From: Candidatus Marinacidobacterales bacterium
Lineage (GTDB): Bacteria; Acidobacteriota; Vicinamibacteria; Marinacidobacterales; SMYC01
Assembly: GCA_965224085.1 (NCBI GenBank)
Contig: CBDCYI010000004.1
Coordinates: 1,696,001-1,760,000 of the forward strand
Length of the DNA stretch: 64,000 nucleotides
Reading direction: 5' to 3'
A program made the translations under genes and the position numbers. This document shows, one piece after another, positions 11,885-59,773 of this stretch (position 1 is its first letter; each line of letters begins with the position of its first letter). The notes under the pieces were generated by a model. That model saw only the letters and a list, made by a program, of their open reading frames with translations. It made no database searches and was not told the origin of the DNA.

Positions 11885-11981
11885 GTGATCTGGCAGTACT
11901 GACGGACTCGCTTCAATGAAGCTCCGCGCCGACAGGCGTGGAATGCGGTGGAATCCACACTGCACCCGGCTGGTGTCACCG

Positions 11982-12323
11982 ATGGATATCGAAGTTTTGG
12001 AAGAACGGCATCACGATGTGCTCGTGCTGCTCCCCATCGGACGCCTGGATAGCGGGAACGCCAGCGCGTTCGAATCGATCGTCATGGAGCACATCAACAG
12101 CGGCGAGCGGCACCTGGTCATCGATTTCAACCGTCTCGACTTCATCAGCAGCGCTGGTCTGCGGGTCGCCCTGCTCGCCACCCGGGCGCTGCAGACGATC
12201 AAGGGGCGGATCGTCCTCTGCGCCATGAGGAAACACATCGAGGAAGTCTTCCGAATCAGCGGCTTCGACCGGATCATCGTGATCAAGGAGTCGCGCCAAA
12301 CGGCTCTGGACGTCTTCGCCTGA
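11982..12323 (+). CDS. STAS-domain anti-sigma-factor antagonist (SpoIIAA/RsbV-like)
   Basis: GRLD..VIDFNRLDFISSAGLR..EVFRISGF with the phosphorylatable Ser. Confidence 0.92.
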   Translation: MDIEVLEERHHDVLVLLPIGRLDSGNASAFESIVMEHINSGERHLVIDFNRLDFISSAGLRVALLATRALQTIKGRIVLCAMRKHIEEVFRISGFDRIIVIKESRQTALDVFA

Positions 12324-15060: not shown

Positions 15061-15232
15061 ATGACTTGCATCGTTCTCACTCTGAACGACCACTCCCTCT
15101 TTAGCCTCGCAGCTGTACAACACCGCGAGCCTCACCGCAGAGAATGCCCGCTTAGCGGACCGATGTCAACCACCCAGCGGCCCGAACGAAGGCCTTGCCG
15201 GAAGCGTCCGGCCCCGCTTGACAACCCCACGG
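15061..15232. repeat. Copy A of a ~172-bp direct repeat (ispH 5' end plus divergent promoter region); copy B at 26602-26772
   Basis: Manual alignment: 8 substitutions plus 1 indel; contains the first ispH codons (MQVI) on the minus strand. Confidence 0.92.
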
Positions 15233-15246
15233 TGAGTCCATATAAC
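15218..15246 (+). promoter_or_regulatory. Near-consensus sigma70 promoter for the squalene/phytoene synthase
   Basis: TTGACA (15218-15223), 17 bp, TATAAC (15241-15246). Confidence 0.8.
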
Positions 15247-15284
15247 TTCCATTAGGCGAAGAAGAAAATGGGACAAGCGTCAGG

Positions 15285-16376
15285 ATGACGGCGTCCTCCT
15301 CGAACGTGTCGACGAAGGGCGACCTCGCCTACCAGGCTACAATCCTGCAAGGCGTGTCCCGCACCTTTGCGCTCACGATTCCGCAGCTTCCAGGCGCTCT
15401 CCGTGACGTGGTGGGCAATGCCTATCTCCTGTGCCGAATCACAGACACCATTGAGGACGAGCCCACGCTGTCCGCCGGGCAGAAGCAGGTGTTTGCGGAA
15501 CGCTTCGTCGAGGTCGTGGCCGGTCGAGAAGCAGCGGAGCCGTTCGCGCGCGAGCTCGGCGCGGGGCTGTCGTCGTCGTCGACCGCCAGCGAGCATGACC
15601 TGATCGCCAACACCGCCCGGGTCATCCGCATCACAAACGGGTTTCGTGCTGCCCAACGAGGCGCGCTCGAACGCTGCGTGCGGATCATGGCGCACGGCAT
15701 GGCGGAGTTTCAGCAGCACGTGACAGCCGCCGGCTTGAACGACCTGCCCCACCTCGATCGCTATTGCTACCACGTCGCCGGCGTGGTCGGCGAGATGCTC
15801 ACCGAGCTGTTCTGCGACTACTCCGCCGAAATCAACGAACGTCGCAACGAACTGCTCCCGCTGGCAGTCTTCTTCGGCCAAGGGCTGCAGATGACCAACA
15901 TCCTCAAGGATGTATGGGACGACCGGCAGCGCGGGGCGTGCTGGCTGCCGCGGGACATCTTCCTTGAAGCCGGGTTCGAGCTGCGCTCCCTGTCCGCGGG
16001 GCAAAATGACCCCCGCTTCACCGACGGGCTGTTCACGCTGGTGGGGATCGCCCGCCAGCATCTGGCGGACGCGTTGCGGTTCATCCAGCTCATTCCGGCC
16101 CATGAAACCGGCATTCGCCGACACTGCCTGTGGGCCTTGGGGATGGCCGTGCTGACCCTGCGCCGCATTCACGCGACGCCAACGTTCCGGAACGAGCGGG
16201 AGGTCAAGATCTCGCGCCGCAGCGTGCGTGCGGTCACCGTAGTCACCAGCACCCTGGTGCGCTCGAATTTGGCGCTGACGCTCCTCTTCAAGGTACTGAC
16301 CCGCGGCCTCCCCCAAGCCGAAGCAGCACGGGCTCCGGACAAGCGTAAAAGCAAGCCCTTGAAGAGTATCCCGTGA
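15285..16376 (+). CDS. Squalene/phytoene synthase family protein, most like single-enzyme FDFT1-type squalene synthase
   Basis: [46 protein letters not shown]-terminal VKISR; the stop codon lies inside the adjacent element end. Confidence 0.9.
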
Positions 16377-17422
16377 GGTCAAAATACTCATGCGGCTTCC
16401 CGATGGTAGAAACGTAGCAACCCACCCAGCGCTCCGCGAACGAGTTCAAATCCGGGCTCCGTGCGGGCAGCTTGACGGGCGCGACGCCAACCGCCTCGAT
16501 GATCCGGTGGAACGACTCGCAGAACTTCGAGTCCCGGTCGTGAATGAGGTATCGGCTCGAGGACAGAAGGCCGACATCTGCCATGGTCACGTTGCGAGCC
16601 ACTTGAGTCATCCACTGTTCGTTCGGATGCGGCGTGATGCCGGCGATGTGGACTCGACGGGTAGCCAAGTGTATGAAGAACACAACGTAGTACGTCACCA
16701 ACCCGCCCTGAGTCCACACTTCCGCGGTGAAGAAATCTGTGGCCGCGAGGACGTCCATGTGCGAGCGGATGAACTCCCTCCACGTCGTGGTCTTCCGACG
16801 CTCTGGTGCGAGCGGAATGCCGTGGCGTTTCAGAATGTTACCGACGGTTTGGTCGGCCACTTCATGCCCGAGGTTGGCTAGCGCCCCGGCAATCCGGTCG
16901 TAACCCCAGGACTTGTTCTCCTTGGCGAGACGCACCACCAGCTCTTCGATGTCGGCGTCGATCCGCGGTCGCCCTGGATACTGACGGTTCTTGGAGCTGT
17001 CGAACTTCTTCGCAACAAGCCTCCGGTGCCAACCTAGGATCGTGTCGGGGTTCACGATACTCGCGATCTCATCAAGGGCTTGCTTACCCAGACGCTTTCC
17101 GAGCTCGGCCAGAGACCGCCGTTCGCCATCGGTCAGGCGCAAGCGACCCTGGATCTGAATTCGAAGAACTCGATTCTCAGCCACAAGATACTCGTTGCGC
17201 AGGAGCAACTCCTCATCCACGGATCCTGAGATGTAGCTCAGTATGGTCTTCCAGTCCATCGCGACTCCTTTCGCTGAACCGGAATACGTATCCGACCGCG
17301 ATGGCCGATTCAAGCGGCCTTTGGAAAGGTGCAAACTGCTGACCCACTGGGCGTTCGAGTATTTTGACCGGGGTTGCTACGTTTCTACCATCGGGAAGCC
17401 GCATGAGTATTTTGACCTCACG
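16372..17422 (-). mobile_element. Integrase-core (rve) transposase element, internally deleted (CDS 17259 to ~16424), bounded by a 52-bp perfect inverted repeat
   Basis: PDTILGWHRRL, WGYDRIAG, ATDFFT, YLIHDRDSKF, ARSPDLNSFAERWV; 16372-16423 is the reverse complement of 17371-17422. Confidence 0.85.
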
Positions 17423-17509
17423 CGATAATTCATGGTCGAGACGCCGAGGACGTGATAGTCACGCGCGTAGCGGATTTGGCGATGTCAAATGCGGTCGTTG
17501 AGGAAACTC

Positions 17510-18796
17510 TTAGAAACTATAAGTCAGGCTCAGATCGAGGAAGCTGTCGCGTCGCATCTCATAGTGGAGATCCGCCTCATCGACACTGAGAAGGGCGATC
17601 GTCTCCATGTGCAGTAACCACTGGTCGGTGATGCGCCGGTTGAATTCGACAGCCAGTGAGCGTGTGGCGCGGCCCGCGTCCGCCAGAACGCCGACAACGA
17701 CTTCGGTGCTCTGGACGTCGTTGAACACAAGGCGCGTGGCGAGGAAGAAATCGTTCTCGAGAGTATTGGGCGAACGGCTTGGCGTCGCATTTCGGCCCCG
17801 CCCATCGTAATTCCATTCGCTGACGACGTTGAGATCGAAGGCGGAACCGGCCACGGAATAGAACGTGTACTCTCCACCGAAAACGGTGGCAAAGTAGTCC
17901 TCTTCCCGGCCGGACAGGTTTCGAGCGTCGGCGCGCTGAATGGCCTCGAGCTTGAACAGCCAGGAGCCGATGGTCATCTGGGCGTCCAGCCCGAATTGGC
18001 GGATCTGCGCGTAGTACTGAATCAGAGCCGGCCCGCCGTCCGGGTCGCTGCCCGGCAGCAGAAACGGCTCCCGGCTGGTGCCGTCGAATACGCTCACGCC
18101 AAGATCGAGTGGTCCGAAGCTGCGGCTGTATCGGGAGGCGAGATCCAGGTGCCACTCCCCAGCCGCGCTCTCGTACTCGATACGCTCGTGGTCCACGACG
18201 AACGGCAGGCGCAGGCGGCCGCTGCGACCTTGAAACGTGCGCGCGCGGTGATAGGGCAGGCCGAATATTTCAAATACGCCCCAGTCGCCAAACCAGGTGA
18301 CGTGCACCATGGGTTGCCCCAGTTTGGCCTCTCCGTTCGGATGCTCGACGAAGTCGACCTGGTTGACGATATCGACCAGGTGCTGCGATTCGGTGACTCC
18401 CCAGAACACCTGGTCGACGCCCAGACGCAACTCCCATCCGCTATCGCCGATTTCGCCGAACAGCAGAAGATAGGCTTCGTGCAGATCGAAGTGGGTGCGG
18501 CGCGGATCCGAATGATCGTAGCGAAAGAACGGCGCCAGCGTGAGGTTTCTGCCGTCGGCGTCTTCCAGATAGAATCGCGGTGCCGCAACGAAGCCGCTGG
18601 CAAGCGAGCGCTGGCCGGAAAAGGCGCCCGCTTCGGGAAACCAACGGCTTTCGGCGCTCAGGCGTCCGGAAAACTCGTATTCGACAGTCTCCTCGGTCTC
18701 CTCGGTTCCGGCATGTGCGTCGGTGGCAAAAATGGTGGCCACGAACCAGACAGCGCCCAGGAGTCCGTGGCAAAAAGCGGCACGGGGTCGCATCAC
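17510..18796 (-). CDS. Outer-membrane beta-barrel protein of MMPL/LolA-like lipid transport operons
   Basis: Signal peptide, FWGVTESQHLVDIVNQ, amphipathic strands, C-terminal LTYSF; ATGA overlap with the LolA-like gene. Confidence 0.8.
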   Translation of the reverse strand: MMRPRAAFCHGLLGAVWFVATIFATDAHAGTEETEETVEYEFSGRLSAESRWFPEAGAFSGQRSLASGFVAAPRFYLEDADGRNLTLAPFFRYDHSDPRRTHFDLHEAYLLLFGEIGDSGWELRLGVDQVFWGVTESQHLVDIVNQVDFVEHPNGEAKLGQPMVHVTWFGDWGVFEIFGLPYHRARTFQGRSGRLRLPFVVDHERIEYESAAGEWHLDLASRYSRSFGPLDLGVSVFDGTSREPFLLPGSDPDGGPALIQYYAQIRQFGLDAQMTIGSWLFKLEAIQRADARNLSGREEDYFATVFGGEYTFYSVAGSAFDLNVVSEWNYDGRGRNATPSRSPNTLENDFFLATRLVFNDVQSTEVVVGVLADAGRATRSLAVEFNRRITDQWLLHMETIALLSVDEADLHYEMRRDSFLDLSLTYSF

Positions 18797-19620
18797 CGCG
18801 CCCGTCTCAGCCCCGTTTGTGTGAAATCGCTGCCGTCCAGGTCTGTTTGGAACTGAAAATCGGTCTGGGTCAGCACCGTGCTTTTCCCGGTCAAATGATT
18901 CACCATCGTCATCTTGCTGGCCCGCCAGTAACGATCCAGGTACTGCGCGTAGTTGTCCAGGGTGAGCGTTTTCAGATGGGCGTCCTTGCGGTCGTAGTAC
19001 TCAATTTTCCGGATGCGACGCTCGTCCTGGTCGCGCCAGACCAGCTGACGGCGATAGCTCGACTTCTTGTCTACGGGGAAGCGCTCAGTGACCGTGCATG
19101 TTGAATCGCCGCACGGCTCGTCGCGCAGGTACCGGTAGGTGAATTTCTCCACTTCCTGGGCGGTCATGTCTTCATACGCAAACTCGCTGCCCATGAAGGA
19201 GCCGGACCGGTTGGCCGAGCTGATGCGCTTGACGCGTTTCAGCGCGGGGAGATAGAGCCATTGATCGTCAGCGTCCTCCCGGTGGGCGTGAATGAGGAAC
19301 GCCGTTCCTTGGACGTCGCGGGGCTCATCGAACACGAACAGGCTCTTGTCCCCGTCGTCGGACACCTCGAGAACGTGGACCCGGAGCTGACGTCGGCTCT
19401 CCTGCCCCTGCTTGTTGCGCAGCACCATGACCTGCTGGGCCGTAAAGTTGACGAACCCTTCCTCGCGCGCCCGGGCATCCTGCGCGATCTTCAGCCCGGC
19501 TTCCTCGGGCGTGTCGTTTGCCGCGTGAGTGGGCACCGGTGCGCCCAGCCCCGTCACAATGGCCAGCGACAGCGCGCATAACAGGAACAGCAGTCGTGCG
19601 GGAAGGCATGCAGGCATCAT
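18793..19620 (-). CDS. Outer-membrane lipoprotein-sorting (LolA-like) protein
   Basis: FDEPRDVQGTAFL, DDQWLYLPALKRVKRI, GSFMGSEFAYED; GGAG RBS before ATG 19620. Confidence 0.88.
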   Translation of the reverse strand: MMPACLPARLLFLLCALSLAIVTGLGAPVPTHAANDTPEEAGLKIAQDARAREEGFVNFTAQQVMVLRNKQGQESRRQLRVHVLEVSDDGDKSLFVFDEPRDVQGTAFLIHAHREDADDQWLYLPALKRVKRISSANRSGSFMGSEFAYEDMTAQEVEKFTYRYLRDEPCGDSTCTVTERFPVDKKSSYRRQLVWRDQDERRIRKIEYYDRKDAHLKTLTLDNYAQYLDRYWRASKMTMVNHLTGKSTVLTQTDFQFQTDLDGSDFTQTGLRRAR

Positions 19621-20039
19621 GAATCTCCCTAGTCTATCGTAATCAGCAGCGTTGGCAGAAGCAAGGAAATCGGCGGCGAGCGCCAGGATGATCGTCATCG
19701 TCACCAGGACGCCGAGCGCCCAGCTCACCTCGAATCCCACGTGGCGAACACCAGAAAGCCGGCCGACGGGACCGCGGTCGTCGTCAACAACGCATGGCCC
19801 ACGGTGCGAAAGGCGGCGCGCACGGCTTCCGGTGCGGGAAGACCTTCGCGCCGGACTTTCAGACTCAGAAAATGAATGGTATCATCCACGACAATCCCGA
19901 AGACAACGGCGACGACCACCGAGGACACAATGCCCACGTGGCCCACGAGGTAGCCCCACAGACCGAAGCTCATGATTGCGGGGATGAAATGCGGCAAGAG
20001 GCTGAGGAGACCGATCTCAACGCTCCTGAAAACAAAAAT

Positions 20040-21264
20040 GGGTCTTCGGCAAAATTTGTGGGTAGAAACCGTTTGCGATCACCCCTTCATCAGACCATGG
20101 CGCTCGCCGACGTTGCTGGCACGCATGGCCTATGGAGGCTGCGGCGATTGTGGAAAACGCGAGAAGCACGTCCGGGAGTGACGCTGGACAGGATGGGTTG
20201 TGAGCTGATTCCACGGGGCGTCATGGGGACCGGGATTTGCGCCTTTCACTCATTTTCTGCCGGACGAAGTCCACCCCGTAGGCCCGCTTCGCCATCAGCA
20301 AATTGTGCGCCGGGCACAAGAGTCTGAGAACTTGCTCATCGTTGTTGTGAAAGATGCCAAATGGTGACCTATGGTCGAGGTGCAGTCCCACGCGCGACGT
20401 ACACCGCGTCCCGGAGCAAAATACAAACACTGGTAGCCATCACGTTCGTGAACCCGCTCGGAAACCTCCGAGGCGACGTAGCGACTCTCGGCGCGCTCGT
20501 CTTTTTCCCCATCTCGTTCTGAACGAGATGGCTCAGAGGCTGCTTCCTGCCTCTTCCTCCGCCGCTCGAGTTTCTTCTTCGGATCCTTTTTGTCGAGCGC
20601 GATGTTGTGGGGCCACGAGCATATGGCTCTCGACGACATCAAGGCCATTGGCATCGACGAAATCCTATGGCACAAAGGCCACCAATACCTCACTGTGGTC
20701 TATCAGATTGACGAGCACCGCAAGCGGCTTTTGTGGTTGGGCGACAAGCGTCGAGTTAAGACGTTGCTCAAGTTCTTTCGCTGGTTCGGCAAGCAACGAA
20801 GTGGTGCGCTTGAGTTCATTTGCTCTGATATGTGGCAGCCTTACCTGAAGGTCATCGCCAAGAAAGCCTCCCAGGCCGTGCACGTCCTGGACCGGTTCCA
20901 CATCCTCCGCTCCGTTCGGAGCTATCTCTTGAAGGAAGACTTCCAGTTTTTCTGGGAATACGTCTCTCCTTACTGGGCAGGTCGCTTCCTCGATCGGTGG
21001 TGCACTCGAGTCATGCGCTCGCAAATCAAACCGATGAAGAAGGTGGCTCACTCGCTGCGTAAACATCGTGTCCTTCTCCTCAACTGGTTCCGCGCCAAAG
21101 GCGCCATCTCCGCCGGTGTTGTCGAGGGCTTCAACAACAAAGCCAAACTCACTACCAGAAAAGCCTTCGGATTCCGGACCTTCAAAGCTGCCGAAGTCGC
21201 TCTTTTTCACACACTTGGAGATCTACCGGAACCAGAGATGACCCACAGATTTTGCTGAGGAGGC
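20040..21264 (+). mobile_element. ISL3-family element (partial transposase ~20600-21258) with 8-bp target duplication
   Basis: IRs GGGTCTTCGGCAAAATTTGTGGGT / ACCCACAGATTTTGCTGAGGAGGC; ACAAAAAT at 20032-20039 and 21265-21272; IGIDE, CSDMWQPY, EGFNNKAK, THRFC. Confidence 0.88.
20221..20600 (-). pseudogene. HNH endonuclease C-terminal fragment (frameshifted) inside the ISL3 element
   Basis: SRYVASEV..VHERDGYQC / RC..LHLDH..LLCPAHN. Confidence 0.7.
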
Positions 21265-21456
21265 ACAAAAATCAGTATGAACGAAATGAGAACCATGGCG
21301 GATATCGTGCCGCCCAGCATGCTGTCGATGTTGCGCTGCGAAATGTGAGCGAAGATGACGCTGACGCACGATGCTTCGTTCGCAAAAGCAGGCGCATTCG
21401 CCCGGAGCCAGACCTGTGCGCGCTCGCCAAGCTCGCGTAGCTCTTGAGACCATGAA

Positions 21457-21645
21457 CCCTAATCGCAAATAAACGTCACCGTGTCTGAGGTCTTTGGCCC
21501 CGTGAATAGCACCTTTTCCAGGTTCTGCATACACCGTGCAGAATCACCTATAGTGGCGGCGAGCGGGTGCCCCAGCACGAGCTTCTCGCCTGCGCCCAGT
21601 GCGGCTGTTTCGCGTTTTCGTGCTTCGAAGATTTTGCGATTAGGG
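21457..21645. mobile_element. 189-bp MITE-like element with 13-bp IRs and a 4-bp target duplication
   Basis: TGAA|CCCTAATCGCAAA...TTTGCGATTAGGG|TGAA; removing it restores ATDNSWSQELRE (intact MMPL has STSSSWSRELRE). Confidence 0.85.
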
Positions 21646-22101
21646 TGAATTATCGGTCGCGACGACCATGCGCTTGACGGACTTGCCGATGTCGATGCGG
21701 TCGTTGATGTCGCTGCCGAATGGAAGCGAGAGCTCGCAGAGCAACAGATACTGCGCCGCGAGGTCCGCATCCTCGGGCAGGCGATCGAAGACCGGATCGT
21801 CGCCGTTCATGTTTTTGTTCAGGCGTTTCATTAGGCAATCGCGCTTCTCAGTGTGGACGAAGCGGACCTCCACTATGAGATGCGAAGCAACAGTTTCGTC
21901 GATCTGGGCCTGACCTACAACTTCTAGCAGCCGGGTTTTCCCCGCAGGCCACGGCTTGACATCGGTCCGCGCTGCTGGTATCATTCACCTGTGGTTTTTT
22001 TTTTGTAGGAAGGTGAGACCAGAGAGATCAGCTCTCGAAAAAGAGGGCCTTCCATAAATCCCGTTGTTCCTTCGCCAACTGCCGAAAACTTCACTGGGAC
22101 A

Positions 22102-23250
22102 ATGTCTCACGCATACCTCGAAGGGTACGAGAAAGCCCGTCTCTACGATCAGGCCGCGGCCGACAACTATCTCAAGCACACCACCATCGGTGATCCCGAG
22201 CTCGACCCGATCATGGAGGAGCTCTCAGCGGAGTTGTCTCCAAGCGACCTGCACCGGTTCATCGGGGCCGGCATAGAGCAGAACGAGGAGGTTCTGCGCC
22301 TCGCGCCGCGTTCTCTGCGCGATTTCTTCAGGGATCTCAAGGAGCCTCCCTGGCTCTACTACGAAGGTTTTCGTCCCGGGATCCGCGCCTTTCATGAAAA
22401 AGTAGACCTGATGCTCACCGCCTTCGTCACGGGAGTGCTGGTAGAAGGCTTTTCGACGCTCATCGCCAAGTCTTTCAATATTACCGGGCGAGTGGCGTCC
22501 ACCAGAAGACGCCTCCAGCAGAACAACCGCCACATGCTGGAGATCTTCTTTCCCGGCAACTTGCAGAGAAACGGCGAGGGATGGAAGCTGTCCACGCGCA
22601 TTCGGTTCGTTCATACTCGGATACGGGGCCTGCTGGCGAAGTCGGATGACTGGAATCACGAAGCCTGGGGCACGCCGGTAAGCGCGGCGCACCTGGGTTT
22701 CGCCATCTCCGTCTTTTCCAAGCGCCTGCTGGAGTACTCGACGATGCTGGGCGCGAAGTTCAGCCAGGAAGAACAGGAGAGCATTCTCGCCGTCTGGCGC
22801 TACGCCGGCTACCTCATGGGGATACCGGAAACCATCCTCTATACGAACGGCGAGGAGGCAGGAAAAATATACAAGATCGGCTACCTATGCGAGCCGAAGC
22901 CGGACGCCGATTCGGTAGCCGTGGCCAATTTGTTGATCCAGGCCATTCCAAGGGTTGCGGACGTCGAGGACCCGGCTGAGCAAAAGCAACTGGTGAAACT
23001 GGCCTACCGCCTGTCACGCGCCCTCATTGGAAAGGAGCTCGCCGACAGTTTCGAGTTTCCACCGGATCCCAAGTGGGCGACCCTGTTCAAGTACCGGATG
23101 AAGCAGCGCGTTCTGCGATTGTTGCGAACCAACAAGATGATCAGATCGGACAATTTCACCCAGCTTCTCCAGATATCGGTGTACGACAGCGAGGGGCTGA
23201 GCTACAAGATGCCGGACCACGTCTACACGTCGAAATCGAGCCCGTGGTAA
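22102..23250 (+). CDS. MpaB'/Lcp (rubber oxygenase, DUF2236)-family heme oxygenase, no signal peptide
   Basis: GD near the N-terminus, RIRFVHTRIR heme-ligand motif, WGTP, WRYAGYLMGI. Confidence 0.85.
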   Translation: MSHAYLEGYEKARLYDQAAADNYLKHTTIGDPELDPIMEELSAELSPSDLHRFIGAGIEQNEEVLRLAPRSLRDFFRDLKEPPWLYYEGFRPGIRAFHEKVDLMLTAFVTGVLVEGFSTLIAKSFNITGRVASTRRRLQQNNRHMLEIFFPGNLQRNGEGWKLSTRIRFVHTRIRGLLAKSDDWNHEAWGTPVSAAHLGFAISVFSKRLLEYSTMLGAKFSQEEQESILAVWRYAGYLMGIPETILYTNGEEAGKIYKIGYLCEPKPDADSVAVANLLIQAIPRVADVEDPAEQKQLVKLAYRLSRALIGKELADSFEFPPDPKWATLFKYRMKQRVLRLLRTNKMIRSDNFTQLLQISVYDSEGLSYKMPDHVYTSKSSPW

Positions 23251-23281
23251 CAATCGAGTAGCTCGTCGCTCCCAGTCCGAG

Positions 23282-25585
23282 ATGGTCGAGGCGCTGACTC
23301 CTTCGCTGCTGGACCGCTACGTCGCCGCCACTGTGCGCTACCGGTGGCTGGTCGTTGCGCTCGCTGCCTTGTTCATGCTGGTCGTGACGGCCGGCGCCCG
23401 CTTCATCGTCGTTACGAGCGACTACCTCGTCCTGTTCAGGGACGACAATCCGCAACTCCTCGCGTTCAAGGCCCTGGAGAATACGTACTCCGCCACCGAC
23501 CGCGCGTTGATTGCCGTTGCGCCTCGAGAGGGATCGGTGTTCACCCGCGAGGCGCTCGGCGCCGTTGTGGAATTGACCGACGCCGCGTGGGAGACGCCCT
23601 ATTCCAGTCGGGTCGACTCCCTCACCAACTATTCCCACAGCGAGGCGCTCGGCGAGGACGATCTGGTCGTCGCCCCACTCGTCGAGGACGCGAGTTCGCT
23701 GAGCGACGCCGATCTGACCCGCGTTGAAACGATCGCTCTGGACGCAATCGAGATCGTCGGGCGTCTGGTCTCCCGTGACGGGCGTGCGGCCGGGGTGGTG
23801 ATCAATTTCGTTCTCCCCGAAAACCACGACCAGGCGGTGATCGAGATCACCGAGTATCTCGACCTGCTCCTCGACCAGGCCCGCTGGCGCCATCCCGGCA
23901 TCGACTATTACATGACCGGTGACATCGCCCTGAACCACGCGTTCGCCGAAGCCACCGCGGATGATCTCCAGACGCTGACGCCAATCGTATTCTTCATCAT
24001 CGTGGCCGTCACAGCCCTGCTTCTGCGCTCGATTCTCGGCACAGCGGCCATCGTCGCCGTGCTCATGTTTGCCGTCAGCACTACCATGGGGTTCGCGGGC
24101 TGGATGGGCGTGGTGTTCAGCCCCACCAGTTCCGGCGTGCCGATCATCGTCACGGTGATAGCCGTCGCGGATTCGATCCACGTCGTCACCACCGTCCTGC
24201 TGGGCATGAGGCGCGGACTGGACAGGAATGCGGCGATCGTCGAGTCGTTTCACATCAATGCCTATCCGATATTTCTCACATCGGTGACAACCGCGATTGG
24301 CTTCCTCAGCCTGAACTCCGCCGAATCGCCGCCTTTCCACGACCTGGGAAATTATGTGGCGTTCGGTGTGCTGTGCGCCTTCGTATACACCATGACGCTC
24401 CTGCCGGCGTTGCTCGCGCTCCTGCCGCTGCGCGCACGCCGCTATCAGCCCGGCCAGGCCGCCTACTTCGACCGCTTTGCCGACTTCGTCGTCGCGCGGC
24501 GCACTGTCCTGCTCTGGTCCGTCGCGGCGGCGGTGGTTGTTCTGGCGACCGGAGTGCCGCGCATCGAGTTGAGCGACAACCTGACACAGTACTTCGATGA
24601 ACGTTACGAGTTCCGGCGTGATTCGGATTACGTCGCCGAGAACCTGACGAGCCTGGACAGGCTGGAATATTCGCTGGACGCCGGGCGCGAAGGCGGCATT
24701 ACCGATCCCGGGTATCTGCGCACGGTCGATGCGCTGGCCGAATGGTTCCGGGAGCAGCCCGAAGTAACCTACGTCCAGTCTTTTCCGGACATCATGAAGC
24801 GTCTCAACAAGAACATGCACGGCGACGATCCAGCCTTCCATCGCCTGCCTGAAGACGGGGACCTCGCGGCGCAGTATCTGTTGCTCTACGAGCTTTCGCT
24901 CCCGTTCGGCGCCGATCTCAACGACCGTATCGACATCGCCAAGTCCGCGACGCGCCTGGTCGTCTCGACCAGCAGCTCATGGTCCAGGGAGCTGCGTGAG
25001 CTCGATGAGCGCGCGCAGGTCTGGATCCGTGCCAATGCGCCCGGTTTTTCGGCCGGGGCATCGGGCCTCAGCATCATGTCCGCTCACGTCTCGCAGCGAA
25101 GCATCGACAGCATGCTGGGCGGCACGATCTCTGCCATGGTTCTTATTTCGTTCATCCTGATTTTCATTTTCCGGAGCATTCGGATCGGCCTGCTCAGTCT
25201 TGTGCCGAATTTCATCCCGGCCATCATGAGCTTTGGCCTGTGGGGCTATCTCGTGGGTCACGTGGGTATTGCCTCTTCGGTGGTCGTCGCCATCGTCTTC
25301 GGAATTATCGTGGACGACACGATTCATTTCTTGAGCGAGTATCTGAAGGCCAGGCGCGAGGGCCTCTCGGCGGCCGAGGCCGTGCGTTCCGCTTTTCACA
25401 CCGTCGGCCAGGCGTTGCTTACGACGACCGTGGTCCTGTCGGCAGGCTTCATGGCGTTTGCCACATCCGGATTCGAGGTCAGCTGGTCGCTCGGGCTCCT
25501 GGTGACGATGACGATCCTCCTTGCGCTTGCCACGGATTTCCTGCTCCTTCCGACGCTGCTGATTGCCGTCGACCGGAAAGAGTGA
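23282..25585 (+). CDS. MMPL/RND-family lipid transporter
   Basis: Two repeats with VADSIH / GIIVDDTIH, TSVTTAIGFL, about 12 TM segments. Confidence 0.92.
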   Translation: MVEALTPSLLDRYVAATVRYRWLVVALAALFMLVVTAGARFIVVTSDYLVLFRDDNPQLLAFKALENTYSATDRALIAVAPREGSVFTREALGAVVELTDAAWETPYSSRVDSLTNYSHSEALGEDDLVVAPLVEDASSLSDADLTRVETIALDAIEIVGRLVSRDGRAAGVVINFVLPENHDQAVIEITEYLDLLLDQARWRHPGIDYYMTGDIALNHAFAEATADDLQTLTPIVFFIIVAVTALLLRSILGTAAIVAVLMFAVSTTMGFAGWMGVVFSPTSSGVPIIVTVIAVADSIHVVTTVLLGMRRGLDRNAAIVESFHINAYPIFLTSVTTAIGFLSLNSAESPPFHDLGNYVAFGVLCAFVYTMTLLPALLALLPLRARRYQPGQAAYFDRFADFVVARRTVLLWSVAAAVVVLATGVPRIELSDNLTQYFDERYEFRRDSDYVAENLTSLDRLEYSLDAGREGGITDPGYLRTVDALAEWFREQPEVTYVQSFPDIMKRLNKNMHGDDPAFHRLPEDGDLAAQYLLLYELSLPFGADLNDRIDIAKSATRLVVSTSSSWSRELRELDERAQVWIRANAPGFSAGASGLSIMSAHVSQRSIDSMLGGTISAMVLISFILIFIFRSIRIGLLSLVPNFIPAIMSFGLWGYLVGHVGIASSVVVAIVFGIIVDDTIHFLSEYLKARREGLSAAEAVRSAFHTVGQALLTTTVVLSAGFMAFATSGFEVSWSLGLLVTMTILLALATDFLLLPTLLIAVDRKE

Positions 25586-25673
25586 GTGAATGCTCCCCTC
25601 TTGAGCGCCGTCGCTGACCATCGTAGCGGGCCTGACGGCCCGGCGGGCAGGTGAGAGTTGCGACTCCGTGCCG

Positions 25674-26612
25674 TTATTGGGGCGCGGCGGCGCGGTCCAG
25701 GGCAGACGGCAGGCTGAAGCGGACGTTCTCGACGATGCCGTCCATCGTGGAAATTTCCAGGTCGGTGTGCTCGCGCAGCTTCTCGATCAGGTCGTGCACC
25801 AGTTCCTCGGGGGTCGAGGCGCCGGCGGTAATGCCGATGCTCTTCTTCCCCCGCAACCATGCGGGATCGAGCTTCGACGGGTCCTCGACCAGGTAGCTCG
25901 GCACGCCGCTGTCGTTGCTGACTTCGCACAAGCGGTTGGAGTTGGAGCTGTTCTGGGCGCCGACCACCAGCACCAGGTCTACGATGGAGGCCAGCGTGCG
26001 CACGGCAGCCTGACGGTTCTGGGTCGCGTAGCAGATGTTCTTGACGTCCGGACCGACGATTTTCGGGAATCGCCGCCGCAGGGCCGAGATCACGTCCAGG
26101 GTATCGTCGACCGACAGGGTCGTCTGGGTGATGTAGGCGACCTTGTCGGGGTCGCGTACCTGTAGCGCTTCCACCCCGTCCACATCGCTCACCAGAAAAA
26201 CTGGCCCCGGAATCTGGCCGACGGTGCCTTCCACCTCGGGGTGGTTCTCGTGGCCGATCAGGATGATGTCGTAGCCGTTGGCCGCGTAGCGCCGGCCCTC
26301 TATGTGCACCTTGGAGACCAGCGGGCAGGTGGCATCCAGCGGACGCAGGCCGCGCACCGACGCGTCCTGCTCGACCTTCTCCGACACGCCGTGGGCGCTG
26401 AACACCGTGATGGCCCCATTGGGAATCTGATCGATTTGTTCGACGAAGCGTACGCCTTTCGCTTTCAGGTTTTCCACGACCCGAAGATTATGGACGATTT
26501 CGTGCCGCACATAGATTGGGGGCCCGTACTGTTGCAGCGCCGCTTCGACGATCTCGATGGCGCGCTCGACACCGGCACAAAACCCGCGCGGTTGCGCTAG
26601 AATGACTTGCAT
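25674..26612 (-). CDS. ispH: 4-hydroxy-3-methylbut-2-enyl diphosphate reductase (alternative GTG start at 26621)
   Basis: [50 protein letters not shown]; all three Fe-S Cys present. Confidence 0.97.
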
Positions 26613-26772
26613 CGTTCTCACTTTGAACGACCGCTCCCTCTTTGGCTTCGTAGCTGTACAACACCGCGAGCCTCATCGCAGAGAATGCCTGCTTAGCGGA
26701 CCGATGTCAACCACCCAGGGCCCGGACGAAGGCCTTGCCGGAAGCGTCCGGCCCCGCTTGACAACCCCACGG
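26602..26772. repeat. Copy B of the ispH/promoter repeat; keeps -35 TTGACA but has lost the -10 box
   Basis: Aligned to 15061-15232; diverges right after ACAACCCCACGG. Confidence 0.9.
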
Positions 26773-26777
26773 GCTTA

Positions 26778-27090
26778 TCACCGTCTCCAGGCTAGCTTGT
26801 CCGCCAGCAAGGGGCTGTAGCCCATCACGTCTTGCTTTGAGACATTGTGCCATATCGGGAGCAGAACTTGCTCACCGGTGACGGTGCGCGTGACGAGACC
26901 GTCGAGTTCGTAGTTCGGCCATCCTTTGTCGAAGAACGCCCGCGACAAAACGACTATGCCGAAACGACTTCGCGCCAAGCCCTCGTCGATCTCTCTTCGC
27001 AGGCTGTCTCCAATCTTAAGTTCGAACTCGTCGAACCAGACTTCGAGCCCGAACTCGCGAAGAGCGTAGGCAATAGGCCTAACCACACTC
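26778..27090 (-). pseudogene. TIR-domain protein fragment lacking the N-terminal FISH strand
   Basis: LEVWFDEFELKIGDSLRREIDEGL..GIVVLSRAFF.KGWPNYEL..LLPIWH. Confidence 0.85.
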
Positions 27091-27230
27091 CCTTGGCCAG
27101 CTCCACTTTCGCCTCCCTCAGCTTGTGCACGATCTTGCTCGGCGCTGTGTCGCTTCTTCGCCATTCCTACCTCCCTTCCACGACCCAGAGCATGAGGTTA
27201 CATCTGGATCCGTTTCAAGGGGTCCGGTCA
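27091..27230 (-). mobile_element. IS3-family left end plus the start of OrfA, fused to the TIR fragment
   Basis: TGACCGGACCCC-type end at 27230, GGAGG RBS, MAKKRHSAEQ. Confidence 0.65.
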
Positions 27231-27309: not shown

Positions 27310-28449
27310 CTATGCGAACCTGACCAGCCGCACGTTAAGCGCACGCGTGGTGCTGCGGGCACCTTTCCACTGGACCAGAATCGGGCTCTGGTAGGTGCCC
27401 CAGCCGATCTCCGGCACGCCGTCGCCTTGCCGGTCCAGGATGGGGAGACTGATGCTGCGCTTTATCCGCAGGAAATGAGATATAGGGAGGGCTAGCGCCC
27501 GGTTAACCACCTTTTCGACCAGGGAGCGGCGTGTGCCAATCTGGTCCATGAGCTTGTTAAACACCTGGACCGCGTCGTACTGCGCGTAGTTGAGCACCTT
27601 GGCCGGTATGGCGCGGGGTGCCTGAAGCGCCTCCCTGCCGAGCTGCGCCGCGAAGCGCAGCGGGTTCCGCAGCACCCCCTGCAGGTCATGCATCATGAGC
27701 AGGGTCTCGTACTCGTTGACGGTCAAGCCAGCGTTGCGCTCTTCCACAGACAGCGACACGTCGAACCGGCCGAACGACACGCGGTGCTCGCGCACCAGCT
27801 TCTCCAATTGGCCAATCAGGCCATGGTGCGGGTCTCGCAGGTTCTGGGCGTCTATGGAACGCGGCGACGCCGGAACCCGAACCTGGATCTGGGCAACCCC
27901 CTCCTCTCCGGTATAAGCGATGACGGTCGTACGTCGGCGGCGGGTGCCGCCGACGTGGACCCCATCCAACTCCACGAACCAGACCGGCTCGTCGCCGTGC
28001 AGCTCGTACGAGGTGGCGCTCCGTAGGCCGCTCCCCATGAACACTAGGTGGGAGTCGGCGTTGCGGGGCTCGACGACGCGTTGCTGCTCCGAAAGCTCGG
28101 TGCGCAGATGCAGCTTGTCGTGGCCGTAGTCGGCACCGGGCGGAAACAGCTTCAGGAATACCTGGAGGTAGTCCTGAATATTGGCGCTGTCGTGGTCCAA
28201 CACCTTCGCGAGGCGCTGGTCCAGATAGCCAGCCGTGGTGTGGCCCGAAATGTAGAACGCCTTCGGATACCGCGTGAAGTCGGATCCGAACTCCTCGCGC
28301 AGCTTGCCTCGCACATCGATCAGATCCACGCGGGCCGCAGGCTTGATCCGCAGCGTCGCATGGAACGGCCCCTCGCCAGCATGGGTGTACCTACGCACTA
28401 GTCCCCTGTAGCAGAAAAAACTAGACAAAGCAGAGCTTGCCGAAACCAT
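27310..28449 (-). CDS. Tandem YjbQ/UPF0047-like protein
   Basis: N-half has HTTA, YGHD, NADSHL, FVELDG; C-half has AGLTVNE, SISLPI, GTYQ. Confidence 0.7.
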   Translation of the reverse strand: MVSASSALSSFFCYRGLVRRYTHAGEGPFHATLRIKPAARVDLIDVRGKLREEFGSDFTRYPKAFYISGHTTAGYLDQRLAKVLDHDSANIQDYLQVFLKLFPPGADYGHDKLHLRTELSEQQRVVEPRNADSHLVFMGSGLRSATSYELHGDEPVWFVELDGVHVGGTRRRRTTVIAYTGEEGVAQIQVRVPASPRSIDAQNLRDPHHGLIGQLEKLVREHRVSFGRFDVSLSVEERNAGLTVNEYETLLMMHDLQGVLRNPLRFAAQLGREALQAPRAIPAKVLNYAQYDAVQVFNKLMDQIGTRRSLVEKVVNRALALPISHFLRIKRSISLPILDRQGDGVPEIGWGTYQSPILVQWKGARSTTRALNVRLVRFA

Positions 28450-29748: not shown

Positions 29749-32700
29749 ATGCACCGCGTTCGCTCACTGTTGAGCCCGCAGGACTGGCTCTACTCACTAA
29801 GGGCCTGTTACATATTAATATTTACAATACACTGTCATTGCTGCTATCCTCTGCTGGTTGCGAGACTATACGAGGATGGCAACAGATCGAAAGGTACCAG
29901 AGTCTGAGCGTCACTGGTTGAGGGTGCTGGGGACGTTGAACGAAGCGCAAGCGCGTGTTTTTGTGGCTCAACGGGCGCTTGAAGAAGGACGCGGCGGGGT
30001 CAGTCGGCTGTCACGACTTACGGGGATGTCGCGGCCGACCATCATGAAGGGCGTGGCGGAACTCAAAGCGAAAGCGCCGATAGTTGATGACGACAGCGCC
30101 CGAGTGCGCAAGCCTGGCGGGGGGAGAAAGCGGGTCGAGGAGTTAGACCCGAGAATCGAGCGGCAGCTGAAGAAGATCCTCGACGAAAGAACCGCCGGCG
30201 ACCCGATGAAGCATCTCAAATGGACGAACAAGTCCACGAGAGCGATGGCGGAGGAGCTTGAACGCAAAGGTCACGATGTCTCGCACGTGACAGTTGCTCG
30301 ACGCCTAGGAGAAATGGGTTACTCGCTGCAAGCTAACGTGAAGAGACTGGAAGGGGATCAGCACCCGGATCGGGACAAACAGTTTCGTTACATCAACAAG
30401 CAAGTAAGCAAGTTCATGCGAAGCAAGGATCCGGTCGTGAGCGTCGATACCAAGAAGAAGGAATTGATAGGAGCCTTTGAAAACAGGGGTAAAACGTGGA
30501 GGAAGAAGAAGGGCGGAGGTGAGCCGGTTCTTGTACACGACTTCCCCAGTATGGCTGAGGGCAAAGCAATTCCCTATGGGACTTACGATGTGTCCCGCGA
30601 CGAAGCGCTGGTCAACGTCGGCATTACTCACGAGACTGCGGAATTCGCGGTAGAAAGCATCCGGAGATGGTGGCGCATACTCGGAAAAAAGTCTTATCCG
30701 ATGGCGAAACGTCTGCTTGTTTGCGCGGACGCCGGTGGAAGCAACGGAAACCGGCTGCGAGGCTGGAAGCTCCACCTCCAAAAGCTATCGGACCAACTGA
30801 AGATTCCCATCACCGTATGCCACTATCCACCGGGAACCAGTAAATGGAACAAAATCGAACATCGACTATTCTCCTTTGTCAGCATGAACTGGAAAGGACG
30901 GCCTCTCGTGAGCTACGAGGCGGTCGTCAATCTTATCGGCAACACCAAGACCCGAACCGGCTTGAAGGTAAAGGCCATGCTGGACAAGAACTCCTACGAG
31001 ACAGGCCAGAAGGTCAGTAACGAAGAAATGCAGGAGCTTCGACTCAAAATCCACCCCTTCCACGGCAACTGGAATTACACTCTCCATCCCCGACGTGCTT
31101 GATTGAGGGTATTAATTCTTACCGAACTCGTATTTGTAAATATTATTATGTAACAGAACCTAAGCCTGCTCCTCCCAATCGGCCTCTATAACCTCGCCCT
31201 CAAATGGGAGCACATCGCGCACATCGGAGCATTGGGATGGCTATCCACCCTGAACTTGATCCGCTCCAATCTCCTCTTCAGTCTGGGGTTTGGCGTTGTC
31301 TGGGTGGGTATTCTAGCACTGAGCCGCGGCGGATGGGCTCGGCGGGTTATCGTCGCGTTGATGCATGCCACCTCGCTCGTGTACGCGGTGGTCGTCACCG
31401 CCGCTCATCACGTTTTCGCAGTCACCGGATCGTCGCTCGATTACAGTCTCATCGAGCTCGCCATCACCAGCTTCAACGAGCTGAGGCCGGTGATGGCAAG
31501 CGAAGTATTTCTCTTGAGTTTCGCGGTCGTCTGCGCCTACTCCCTTTTCGGTCCGGCGCTTTCGACCTTAGCGGCAATCCGTTTTCACTTAATTCCGGAG
31601 ACTCCGCGTGTTTCAGATCCAAGCCGCCGGCCAGCCCTCTATGCATTGCCCGCAGCAGGGGTCCTCCTGCTTCTGGCATCGGTTCCAGTGTCGGGCCCGC
31701 TCGGCAAGTCCTTCGCTCGAGATCCTCTCTTGCACGTCCTCATAACAGCCGTCGACCAGCCCGCAGCCGACTCCGCTGATCGACTCGGGGCCTCTTTCGG
31801 CGCTGTCGGTGCCAGACTCATCCGGAAATCATCTGGCGGGCCGATGAACATCGCGCTGATCGTCCTCGAGTCGACCGGGGCATCGTCCGTCACTCCGTAC
31901 AACAAGGGTATTGCCACCACGCCCTATCTGGACGAGCTCGCGGAAAAGAGCCTTTTGGTCGAGCGAACCTACTCGACTGTACCCCACACCTCGAAGGCTC
32001 TGGTCTCGATCGTCTGCGGGATCGAGCCCCGACCCATTCGGCCCATCACCGAGTTCCTGTCCGGACTGATACCTGCGACCTGCCTGCCGGAGCTCTTGCG
32101 TCAGCAAGGCTACCGCACCGTCTTCTTTCAGTCGGCGACTGAATTCTTCCAGAATCGTCGTCGACTGGTGGCCAACTTCGGTTACGAGGACTTCTACCCT
32201 GGCGAGTCGATGGACAGCCGTGGTTTCGAGCGGGCCAATTACTTCGGTTTCGAAGATGACGTCATGCTCGAGCCCAGCAGAAAGTGGCTGGAAAAGAACG
32301 GGAATCATCCTTTTCTCGCTACCTATCTGACCATCACCCCCCATCACCAGTATTTGGCCCCCAGGCGATACGGGAGGGTTCGCTTTGTCCAGCGGGAAGA
32401 GCACAACCTCTACCTCAACGCCGTTCGTTATCTAGACTTCTTCGTCAGGAATCTCATCGAGCAGTACCAGCAACTCGGTCTATACGATGAGACCATCTTT
32501 GTGATTGTGGGTGACCATGGCGAGGCCTTTGGAGAGCATCGCAGGTCCAAGCACAACAACATCCTCTACGAGGAGGTCATGAGGGTCCCTCTCCTCATCC
32601 ATTCTCCCGCGATCGTTTCTGCCGGAGAGCGCGTAGCTGGCCCTGCCAGCCTTCTGGACATCCTTCCTACCGCGGTCGATCTGCTAGGCTTCGAGATCGC

Positions 32701-36183: not shown

Positions 36184-36452
36184 GGAGCCTCCAGCTCGTA
36201 GGGAGTTTTCTGGTGACCCGAGCCGAACTACTGACGCTCGTGCTCGCCGTGCTCGCGCTGCCGGTGCGCGTCGCAGTCTCGGCCGGAATGTCCGCAGACG
36301 TGCTGCGCTTCTACTGTCTCTTTGTCGCGTTGGTCGCGGCCGTGGTGACGATCCTTCCCGTGAAGAAGGCGTGGCTGGACGGCCCGCGCCTTTGTCTCCT
36401 GCTCGCAGCGCTTTGGTCGGTGCCGTCCATCCACGACCGTGTCGGTGGATGA
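36180..36452 (+). pseudogene. N-terminus of a second membrane protein (possibly GT-C), truncated at a junction
   Basis: ATGA-coupled to the previous gene; 3 TM segments then an abrupt stop at ..HDRVGG*. Confidence 0.55.
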
Positions 36453-39926: not shown

Positions 39927-40074
39927 TGAAGTCCTCCTGCATGTCACGGATAGAAAAGGCTCTCATGAGCCGAATCGCCCGTGGATTAGCCCGTTTAAAT
40001 GCTTGACTGTCCGCGCTTTGCGTTCTGGCGGCCTTTTCTGCGGCGCGGGCGTCGATTGCGATAGAATAGGATCC

Positions 40075-59749: not shown

Positions 59750-59773
59750 AGCCGATCAGTCTAACAAAGGCTC

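Follow-up and report, generated by a model that had tools for sequence, protein, structure and literature searches.

In Castellaniella defragrans, monoterpenes are exported by AmeABCD, a set with an HAE3 pump of the resistance–nodulation–division (RND) type, a DUF1302 barrel, and a LolA-superfamily partner, and its deletion lowers the tolerance to apolar monoterpenes, according to the available text of the report (PMC6394551). For Pseudomonas putida, the accessible parts of the sources describe a set (PP_0765/PP_0766/PP_2018/PP_2019) that combines DUF1302/DUF1329 genes with those for a BNR protein and an RND pump as co-fit and needed for growth on Tween 20 (10.1101/2020.07.04.188060, PMC10866462). 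As far as these texts go, the cargo of both sets is an apolar isoprenoid or lipid, and their genes lie beside terpene metabolism. The same kinds of component (HAE3 RND pump, LolA-superfamily protein, and DUF1302-type barrel) were found at 15.2–26.8 kb of a 64-kb stretch of a Candidatus Marinacidobacterales genome (hereafter, the window, to which all genome-level statements are limited), together with a haem oxygenase of the DUF2236 family, a squalene synthase (SQS), and IspH, the 4-hydroxy-3-methylbut-2-enyl diphosphate (HMBPP) reductase. We refer to the genes for the oxygenase, pump, LolA-like carrier, and barrel as the core operon, and compared the region with 80 related loci from other genomes.

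The set differs from AmeABCD in that its carrier is of the PF17131 type (~240 aa) and not DUF1329 (~450 aa), its barrel has 428 rather than 605 aa, and a fourth partner of the BNR/COG4447 type (AmeC) was seen neither between nor beside the core genes in the window and the loci scanned. The only BNR protein seen was one next to a solitary oxygenase, in L039. Unlike the Castellaniella and Pseudomonas sets, the locus is linked with squalene synthesis and an oxygenase instead of catabolism, and is spread across phyla.

Hopanoid (hpn) clusters hold ispH. As in hpn clusters with HpnN, squalene genes (HpnCDE in 13 of the 80 loci), IspH, and an HAE3 pump stand side by side, and a triterpenoid cargo bound for the outer membrane would be a further likeness. 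However, neither a squalene-hopene cyclase (SQHop_cyclase) nor hpnGHI was seen in the window and locus open reading frames (ORFs) scanned, the pump is not HpnN, and HpnN, for which a role in hopanoid transport is given in the available text of PMC6394551, works without a carrier or barrel. Aryl polyene clusters also bring their own RND pump and LolA-like carrier (ApeL/ApeM/ApeN), by which a hydrophobic compound reaches the outer membrane, but this compound is a lipid of the polyketide type, the outer partner is LolB-like and not a barrel, and the genes are unrelated in sequence (PMC8253772). The steroid clusters of sponge symbionts are likewise triterpenoid-related, horizontally shared by the same classes, under purifying selection, and sometimes adjacent to FDFT1; they consist of entirely different genes (LSS, CYP51, and ERG24), with no oxygenase, pump, carrier, or barrel described in the accessible text (PMC9531527), and none of their genes was seen in the loci scanned.

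We propose, with a probability of roughly 0.55, that the region carries a single working set of a lipid island that moves horizontally and comprises two modules (the core operon and an isoprenoid supply module), and whose squalene-derived cargo undergoes oxygenation and export. Each part falls into a known family; new are their assembly, the tie to squalene, and the spread across phyla.

Conservation of the gene set across 80 related loci

An alignment of oxygenase relatives (A1) was used for a profile scan of species-representative genomes, which gave 386 pattern matches and 240 relatives; the best 80 of the 240 (top third) were taken with 10 kb of flank on each side. Genes were counted by tblastn of the window proteins against these loci within the 10-kb range, and about 180 of the 1433 predicted ORFs (cluster representatives, the whole sets of nine loci, and ORFs near cluster genes) were scanned with Pfam. 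The closest relative (L001) is the chromosome of a Candidatus Marinacidobacterales metagenome-assembled genome (MAG) with ~98% nucleotide identity to the window.

All four core genes were present in 59 of the 80 loci, and the oxygenase gene was followed by the pump gene on the same strand at a distance of ≤400 bp in 54, so that the linkage supposed in the initial annotation clearly recurs elsewhere. IspH lay within 10 kb in 38 loci (in 27 at ≥60% identity). Genes for squalene synthesis lay within 10 kb in 37 loci from seven named phyla, namely FDFT1-type SQS in 24 and HpnCDE in 13, without overlap. HpnC and HpnE were found in 13 loci and HpnD in 12, with representatives of all three above the equivalog cut-offs, while Dxs was found in 13 loci and farnesyl diphosphate (FPP) synthase in five. 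The FDFT1-type count includes a 31%-identical SQS in L028, whose gene overlaps the end of the oxygenase gene, and a fusion in a Binatia MAG (L008:15714-17696, + strand), in which SQS-type and FPP synthase (353 bits) domains are combined in a protein of 661 aa encoded directly after the barrel gene. In L028, L036, L038, and L050, SQS directly adjoins the oxygenase; the pump is absent from L028, L038, and L050, and the pump operon lies upstream in L036. Seventeen loci held a solitary oxygenase without a pump, several of these copies being partial (73–86% coverage), and no constant partner was found for them when looked for.

Squalene genes thus occur in three non-equivalent forms (FDFT1-type SQS, HpnCDE, and the SQS–FPP-synthase fusion), which points to squalene itself as the shared metabolite. 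The strongest argument for a cargo derived from squalene is that one and the same core is accompanied by three squalene routes as well as by Dxs, IspH, and FPP synthase.

The same genes could instead serve the trafficking of a sterol or other cyclic triterpenoid: SQS and IspH would feed a cyclase pathway elsewhere in the genome (e.g., LSS-CYP51-ERG24), the exporter would carry the product to the outer membrane, in the manner of HpnN with hopanoids and BstABC with sterols, and the oxygenase would tailor its ring or side chain. Because LSS-CYP51-ERG24 clusters occur in sponge bacteria of the same classes, a cyclic product made by genes elsewhere stays an alternative, and the acyclic or apo-triterpenoid route distinct from sterols and hopanoids, as inferred in the initial annotation, is not supported by the 64 kb. 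In the accessible text of PMC9531527, horizontally transferred sterol clusters are reported for 115 of 537 sponge MAGs; these belong to 11 classes, much the same ones as in our loci, and FDFT1, which is enriched in these microbiomes, sometimes flanks the clusters. However, the window and the locus ORFs scanned yielded no LSS, SHC, ERG24, or CYP51, and the loci linked to HpnCDE had no adjacent shc. The initial annotation had listed no cyclase, epoxidase, hpnCDE set, or crtI in the window, and none was detected among its largest non-overlapping ORFs, which were those scanned; nor did the scanned locus ORFs suggest that homologous clusters normally include a cyclase. The pump matches the Sterol-sensing family (E 1.9e-8) and, weakly, HpnN and BstA, and BstABC is a known bacterial set for sterol transport, as given in the available part of PMC10942540, but the scores were 35.5 against a cut-off of 1400 for BstA and 97 against 752 for HpnN. 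A P450–GPP34 fusion and a KshA-like Rieske oxygenase close by in L036 and L054 count in favour of this reading, but such neighbours occurred in only two of the 80 loci. We regard a cyclic cargo as rather doubtful.

Horizontal spread and selection

The loci come from eight named phyla (Acidobacteriota, Pseudomonadota, Nitrospirota, Latescibacterota, Binatota, Verrucomicrobiota, Gemmatimonadota, and Rhodothermota), across which their proteins were 50–97% identical to those of the window by tblastn. The oxygenase tree (72 rows, quick method) was star-like and had 19 changes of phylum label against a minimum of seven, with starred mixed clades. Cluster-linked IspH formed three clades, one of 18 rows from four phyla with FDFT1-type SQS, one of 10 rows from five phyla with HpnCDE, and an acidobacterial one with Dxs. 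The window IspH falls within the four-phylum clade and is 82–86% identical to those of Latescibacterota and Opitutales, compared with 52% for Bryobacterales of its own phylum. The synonymous divergence (dS) of the window genes was 0.64–0.86 from the Latescibacterota locus and 0.81–1.06 from the Opitutales locus, which is far from saturation. The ratio of nonsynonymous to synonymous divergence (dN/dS) was 0.09–0.49 in 34 of 35 gene comparisons covering all six genes; the exception, SQS against L001 (0.91), is an artefact, as the L001 gene is cut by an insertion sequence (IS).

The high identity across phyla, unsaturated dS, and low dN/dS together point to recent horizontal spread under purifying selection. 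Selection had been no more than hinted at from the survival of intact genes amid decay, and it is now measured; the reading of the genes as a functional unit is likewise supported, in the sense of a conserved and selected one (54 and 59 of 80 loci; dN/dS). The unit looks like a horizontally spread island common to many phyla, a point that the initial annotation missed. Spearman correlations of pairwise identities were 0.32–0.58 among the core genes, 0.47 between IspH and SQS, and −0.01 to 0.22 between the core and IspH, the pairs being non-independent.

A chance neighbourhood, in which a housekeeping ispH and unrelated genes were joined by IS shuffling, would fit the heavy rearrangement of the window and the number of promoter-like sites, which is at chance level (three found by the scan against 2.6 expected). 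However, flanking genes vary from locus to locus while the same neighbours recur in seven to eight phyla, and the multi-phylum clades of IspH track the cluster type, which makes coincidence highly improbable.

The carriers are probably uncultured marine host-associated bacteria. This host link is based on one record titled with "sponge", on taxon names, and on a list of classes matching that of PMC9531527; in addition, the genus Porisulfidus is mentioned in the accessible part of a genome note on a sponge.

The haem oxygenase

The AF2 model of the oxygenase, built on 47 diverse relatives, was all-helical (pLDDT 93, pTM 0.92). In a Foldseek search of the PDB, it matched LcpK30 (5o1l_A) with E 1.2e-7 and TM-scores of 0.72/0.73 over 368 columns, i.e., the globin-like Lcp fold over the whole length. 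The second match was t-anethole oxygenase (E 0.014–0.029), and the others, with TMq ≤ 0.18, gave no further match at the fold level. The family profile matched LcpK30 with E 1.8e-28 at ~15% identity to Lcp. R168, H171, and R175 align to R195, H198, and R202 of Lcp, and R137 to R164. All of the first three are invariant in alignment A1; in alignment A3, this holds for R168 and R175, with H171 present in ≥90% of the sequences. In the available texts on Lcp, the roles of the haem residues include that of H198 as the proximal ligand, and R164 and T168 are described as conserved distal residues and K167 as variable (PMC5522427, PMC6311187).

The N-terminus is helical and hydrophilic from residue 3 in both the sequence and model, with no signal-like stretch. 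Lcp is secreted via the Tat pathway. The window oxygenase thus differs from Lcp in having no Tat signal and a probable cytoplasmic location, in carrying Q140/N141 at the distal side, and in being the first gene of an exporter operon. The fold, the haem residues, and the missing signal peptide suggest a cytoplasmic haem protein of an alkene-cleaving fold with a pocket of its own.

With Lcp, fungal MpaB', and t-anethole oxygenase, all haem enzymes that cut C=C bonds, the oxygenase shares the fold, the proximal haem histidine, and the arginines. Two of the three act on isoprenoid chains; in the accessible parts of the sources, both characterised relatives cut isoprenoid C=C bonds (PMC6311187; 10.1101/524025, PMC6900556). 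Among 1.84 billion cluster representatives, 139 matched the oxygenase at E ≤ 1e-30 and 2148 at E ≤ 0.001; the former number marks it as a narrow subfamily, and relatives with 35–53% identity were also among the matches. A search for longer homologues, which is weak evidence on the matter, gave no fused form among 4948 candidates.

Squalene synthase

The best NCBIfam model for the window SQS was TIGR01559 (105.8 bits, below the cut-off of 286.75), followed by HpnD (75), HpnC (53), and CrtB (51), and the best PDB match was human squalene synthase (E 3.8e-16). Assignments to CrtM/CrtB or HpnC/HpnD were rejected on their lower scores in the NCBIfam and PDB searches. In the alignment to the human enzyme, SRTF stands at SRSF and VKISRRS at VKI--RKGQ. 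In FDFT1-type SQS, the NADPH step is taken to involve the SRSF-type flap motif together with a basic loop towards the C-terminus of the catalytic domain.

Pump, carrier, and barrel

The pump scored 184.8 bits with the HAE3 model TIGR00921 (cut-off 351.9) and 109 bits with Pfam MMPL (cut-off 20.5). Its scores fell short of the equivalogs for HpnN (TIGR03480, 97.1 against 751.85; NF052374, 42 against 1100) and BstA (35.5 against 1400), and the identities HpnN, BstA, and MmpL3 were rejected on the NCBIfam scores. The nearest solved structures, all distant, were MmpL4/5 and HpnN. The LolA-like protein scored 200.9 bits with PF17131 (cut-off 30) and matched PDB 3bk5, a solved homologue without an assigned function, with E 6.4e-103. 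The match of the barrel to DUF1302 covers only 76 residues of the 541-position model (23.4 bits against 23.2); its AF2 model is all-beta (pLDDT 74), and Foldseek returned AlgE (TM 0.54–0.58) and porins.

When the barrel was folded together with the LolA-like protein, three runs returned ipSAE values of 0.89, 0.90, and 0.89, compared with 0.04 for the best of three controls; the contacts agreed by ≥94%, and the pLDDT of the partner was ≥89. Of the solved complexes, 116 of 157 attain the mark applied here, as do 2 of 215 mismatched pairs, and the result supports a predicted binding of the two proteins. An invariant loop of the LolA-like protein (residues 167–177) touches residues all round the barrel wall in the predicted complex and is thereby predicted to plug the barrel lumen.

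An inward direction would also be conceivable, with the barrel, carrier, and pump importing a host isoprenoid lipid for degradation by the oxygenase. Lcp is a catabolic enzyme, and the P. putida set serves growth on Tween 20, but RND pumps are known as exporters, the genes linked to the core are biosynthetic, and no recurrent beta-oxidation or other catabolic genes were seen nearby in the loci scanned. Uptake is therefore very unlikely.

Proposed mechanism and its standing

In the proposed export of a squalene-derived lipid, IspH would, judging from its family, raise the supply of isopentenyl and dimethylallyl diphosphate, and the FDFT1-like synthase would join two molecules of FPP into squalene. 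The cytoplasmic oxygenase, with haem b in an Lcp/MpaB fold, would attack a trisubstituted C=C bond of squalene or a squalene-derived lipid. Driven by the proton gradient, the HAE3 pump would extract the hydrophobic product from the inner membrane and hand it to the LolA-like carrier in the periplasm, which would dock via loop 167–177 in the barrel lumen, and the lipid would be released into or through the outer membrane. The island seems to have passed in recent times from phylum to phylum among uncultured marine bacteria, which are probably host-associated, and purifying selection maintains it. The data show the identities of the genes, their conserved linkage, the spread across phyla, the selection, and the fold and haem residues of the oxygenase, whereas the squalene-derived cargo, the outward direction, the transfer from carrier to barrel, and the cleavage of a C=C bond are inferred.

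Several points weigh against this proposal. Isoprenoid genes were missing within 10 kb from 22 of the 59 loci with a full core, including all eight Nitrospirota loci; a squalene source in the neighbourhood is therefore dispensable for the core, and the isoprenoid module is a frequent, not an obligatory, attachment, which the initial annotation did not note. The identities of the core and IspH are hardly correlated, which suggests two modules that were reshuffled and not fixed together, and the 80 loci are phylogenetically non-independent. In the oxygenase, the distal residues differ (Q140/N141 at K167/T168 of Lcp), so the conserved pair R164 and T168 is not kept as such. SQS, pump, and barrel score below or barely at the curated family cut-offs. 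The complex was predicted with alignments of our own making, and the prediction may owe something to similar pairs that are already solved or modelled. Finally, a cyclase may be encoded elsewhere in the genome.

The 22 cores without a supply module fit a cyclic cargo and also a tolerance island directed at foreign terpenoids of the host or neighbours, in which the oxygenase would cut them, the pump set would expel them as AmeABCD does, and extra squalene would stiffen the membrane. The lowered monoterpene tolerance of the AmeABCD deletion agrees with such a role, as do the genes for sensors and stress regulators nearby (PBP6 in 17 and histidine kinase in 13 of the 80 loci, SpoIIE, and STAS), and a shared chemical stress would explain the spread over all phyla of one habitat. 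On the other hand, three squalene routes with Dxs, IspH, and FPP synthase fit substrate supply better than membrane repair, SQS lies directly beside the oxygenase in L028, L036, L038, and L050, and the oxygenase is predicted to be cytoplasmic and not secreted. We consider a tolerance role unlikely.

As to the purpose of a squalene-derived export, a speculative suggestion, which we put forward with little confidence, is a symbiosis lipid shared across phyla: the cassette, traded among symbionts of marine invertebrates from at least eight bacterial phyla, would turn squalene into an oxygenated or shortened isoprenoid that the pump, carrier, and barrel deliver to the surface of the symbionts or to the host, where it would serve as a shared recognition, signalling, or protective molecule. 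In that case, the bacteria would possess an apo-squalenoid route unlike any described so far, and a physiological role would be assigned for the first time to a bacterial DUF2236 oxygenase that does not act on rubber. Uncharacterised "terpene" gene cluster families make up most of the conserved biosynthetic core of sponge microbiomes, according to the available text of PMC9426513, and the island may be one of them.

No published account of this gene combination was found in the literature searched. The DUF2236 literature found there was limited to work on Lcp/MpaB or incidental mentions, no mention of MpaB was found in that on squalene in sponge symbionts, and a search for bacterial oxidative cleavage of squalene to geranylacetone returned only unrelated work. 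If the proposed export is correct, a large group of uncharacterised DUF2236 haem oxygenases would gain a function and a class of natural substrates, and so would the small LolA-like proteins and barrels that accompany HAE3 pumps. Together with the published sterol clusters, the island would then make two independent cases in which unrelated symbionts of one habitat trade triterpenoid genes, with lipid chemistry as a shared currency of that symbiosis. The parts are small and soluble enough for tests in E. coli.

Gene content and promoters of the region

Genes were called from ORFs with Pfam and NCBIfam searches (Table 1). The six intact non-mobile genes noted in the initial annotation are all borne out by these calls, its distance of 31 bp between the oxygenase and pump genes is correct, and the near-consensus promoter it placed before the synthase gene is confirmed by direct reading. 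The −10 box of this promoter (TATAAC) lies 38 nt before the ATG, and the promoter is kept in L001; it is absent from the list of the program scan because the scan requires T at the last position, where the site has C. The true start of the LolA-like protein is likely M41, since the first 26 residues of its ORF are the tail of a broken pump gene. The G+C content of the window is ~60%.

Table 1. Coordinates and evidence for genes, promoters, and remnants in the region (window positions).
Feature	Position	Strand	Evidence or detail
FDFT1-like squalene synthase, 363 aa	15285-16376	+	Pfam SQS_PSY E 2.3e-56
Outer-membrane beta-barrel, distant DUF1302, 428 aa, signal peptide	17510-18796	-	Pfam DUF1302 23.4 bits vs 23.2 cut-off
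LolA-like periplasmic carrier	ORF 18793-19740, likely start M41 at 19620	-	PF17131 E 1.8e-59
Lcp/MpaB-fold haem oxygenase (DUF2236, MPAB_Lcp_cat), 382 aa	22102-23250	+	PF09995 72 bits vs 23
HAE3/MMPL-type RND inner-membrane pump, 767 aa	23282-25585	+	Pfam MMPL E 3.1e-31, Sterol-sensing E 1.9e-8
IspH (HMBPP reductase), 315 aa	25674-26621	-	NF002188 equivalog 468.6 bits vs 420
Sigma-70-like promoter before SQS	15218-15246	+	TTGACA 15218-15223, 17-nt spacer, TATAAC 15241-15246
Promoter-like site before oxygenase	21956-21984	+	TTGACA, 17-nt spacer, TATCAT, with TG; scan 11/12 matches
Copy A pump pseudogene (second HAE3 pump)	19663-21834	-	tblastn; fragments 21834-21264 and 20039-19663
ISL3 transposase	20590-21258		Pfam
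Remnant of second barrel gene (copy B), last 29 residues and stop	21838-21927	+	tblastn 83% identical to barrel residues 400-428 (21838-21924)
Duplicated IspH-SQS intergenic segment (172 bp), copy 1	15061-15233	not assigned	includes ~20 nt of IspH 5' end
Duplicated IspH-SQS intergenic segment, copy 2	26601-26773	not assigned	breaks off after -35 box

Two scrambled copies of the cluster

Tblastn of the intact proteins against the window revealed that the six genes derive from two partial copies of one cluster, a patchwork origin that is absent from the initial annotation. Copy A, on the − strand, consists of a broken and truncated pump gene followed by the LolA-like and barrel genes. Its pump pseudogene retains residues 504–754, split by the ISL3 element, whereas the N-terminal 500 residues are gone. 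Copy B, on the + strand, begins with a barrel remnant, which directly precedes the oxygenase gene, and continues with the pump and IspH. The intergenic duplicate was defined by a three-way alignment of its copy 1 with window 26580-26840 and L001:14480-14740 and by blastn synteny. From this 172-bp duplicate and the arrangement in L001, SQS formerly stood head-to-head with IspH and was later moved away; the ancestral order in the L001 comparison is oxygenase, pump, IspH (−), promoter region, and SQS (+). After the IS scrambling of the two copies, exactly one intact copy of each part is left.

The window is rich in IS elements (IS481-like, ISL3, IS6, two ISAzo13-type, and IS4/IS5-type). In L001, an IS6-like element cuts SQS after ~267 codons (L001:15526-16330), whereas the window SQS is intact. 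Two or three oxygenase loci per genome were also seen elsewhere, namely L002/L003 (OZ244656.1), L028/L049 (OZ245028.1), and L047/L063/L079 (OZ242169.1), and some of the extra copies are solitary or partial, as in the window.

Neighbouring genes

Genes of the sensor and partner-switching type near the island (periplasmic binding protein of the PBP6 family, histidine kinase, STAS, and SpoIIE) are represented in the window by STAS (11889-12320) and GAF-SpoIIE (58499-59755), with similar genes at L014, L053, L025, and others; they may regulate the island.

The P450–GPP34 (Golgi phosphoprotein 3) fusion and KshA-like Rieske oxygenase lie beside the island at L036:13803-18356 and L054:4624-7239, the fusion being located by its coordinates in L036 and matched by tblastn in L054. 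GPP34 is linked to sponge symbiosis in the available part of PMC11706023. A gene of the flavin amine-oxidase type stands between the pump and LolA-like genes at L065:13472-14938 and likely also in the Nitrospirales loci L073, L075, and L080; L057 and L069 hold one too. Its assignment to HpnE was rejected (58 bits against a cut-off of 283).

A protein of 379 aa encoded at window 27310-28449 (−) had no Pfam or NCBIfam match. Relatives 72–73% identical to it immediately precede the oxygenase in L012 and the pump in L036, and the protein may be an occasional extra member of the island; Atlas placed it with hypothetical families, mostly of Acidobacteriota, with a weak lead to YjbQ (0.83). Directly after the break of the IspH–SQS intergenic region, a short TIR-domain ORF of 139 aa (26781-27197, −) is probably a fragment. 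Two stop-to-stop frames on the − strand (36181-38520 and 38289-39962) have Rieske [2Fe-2S] matches upstream of matches to a thiamine diphosphate (TPP) enzyme and a glutamate-synthase-type FMN domain; the frames overlap by ~230 nt, and hence a fusion is not established. Two full-length inverted copies of the ISAzo13-type transposase (DDE_Tnp_ISAZ013) lie 10 kb apart (29819-31099, +, and 41320-42600, −) and could invert or mobilise the intervening segment.

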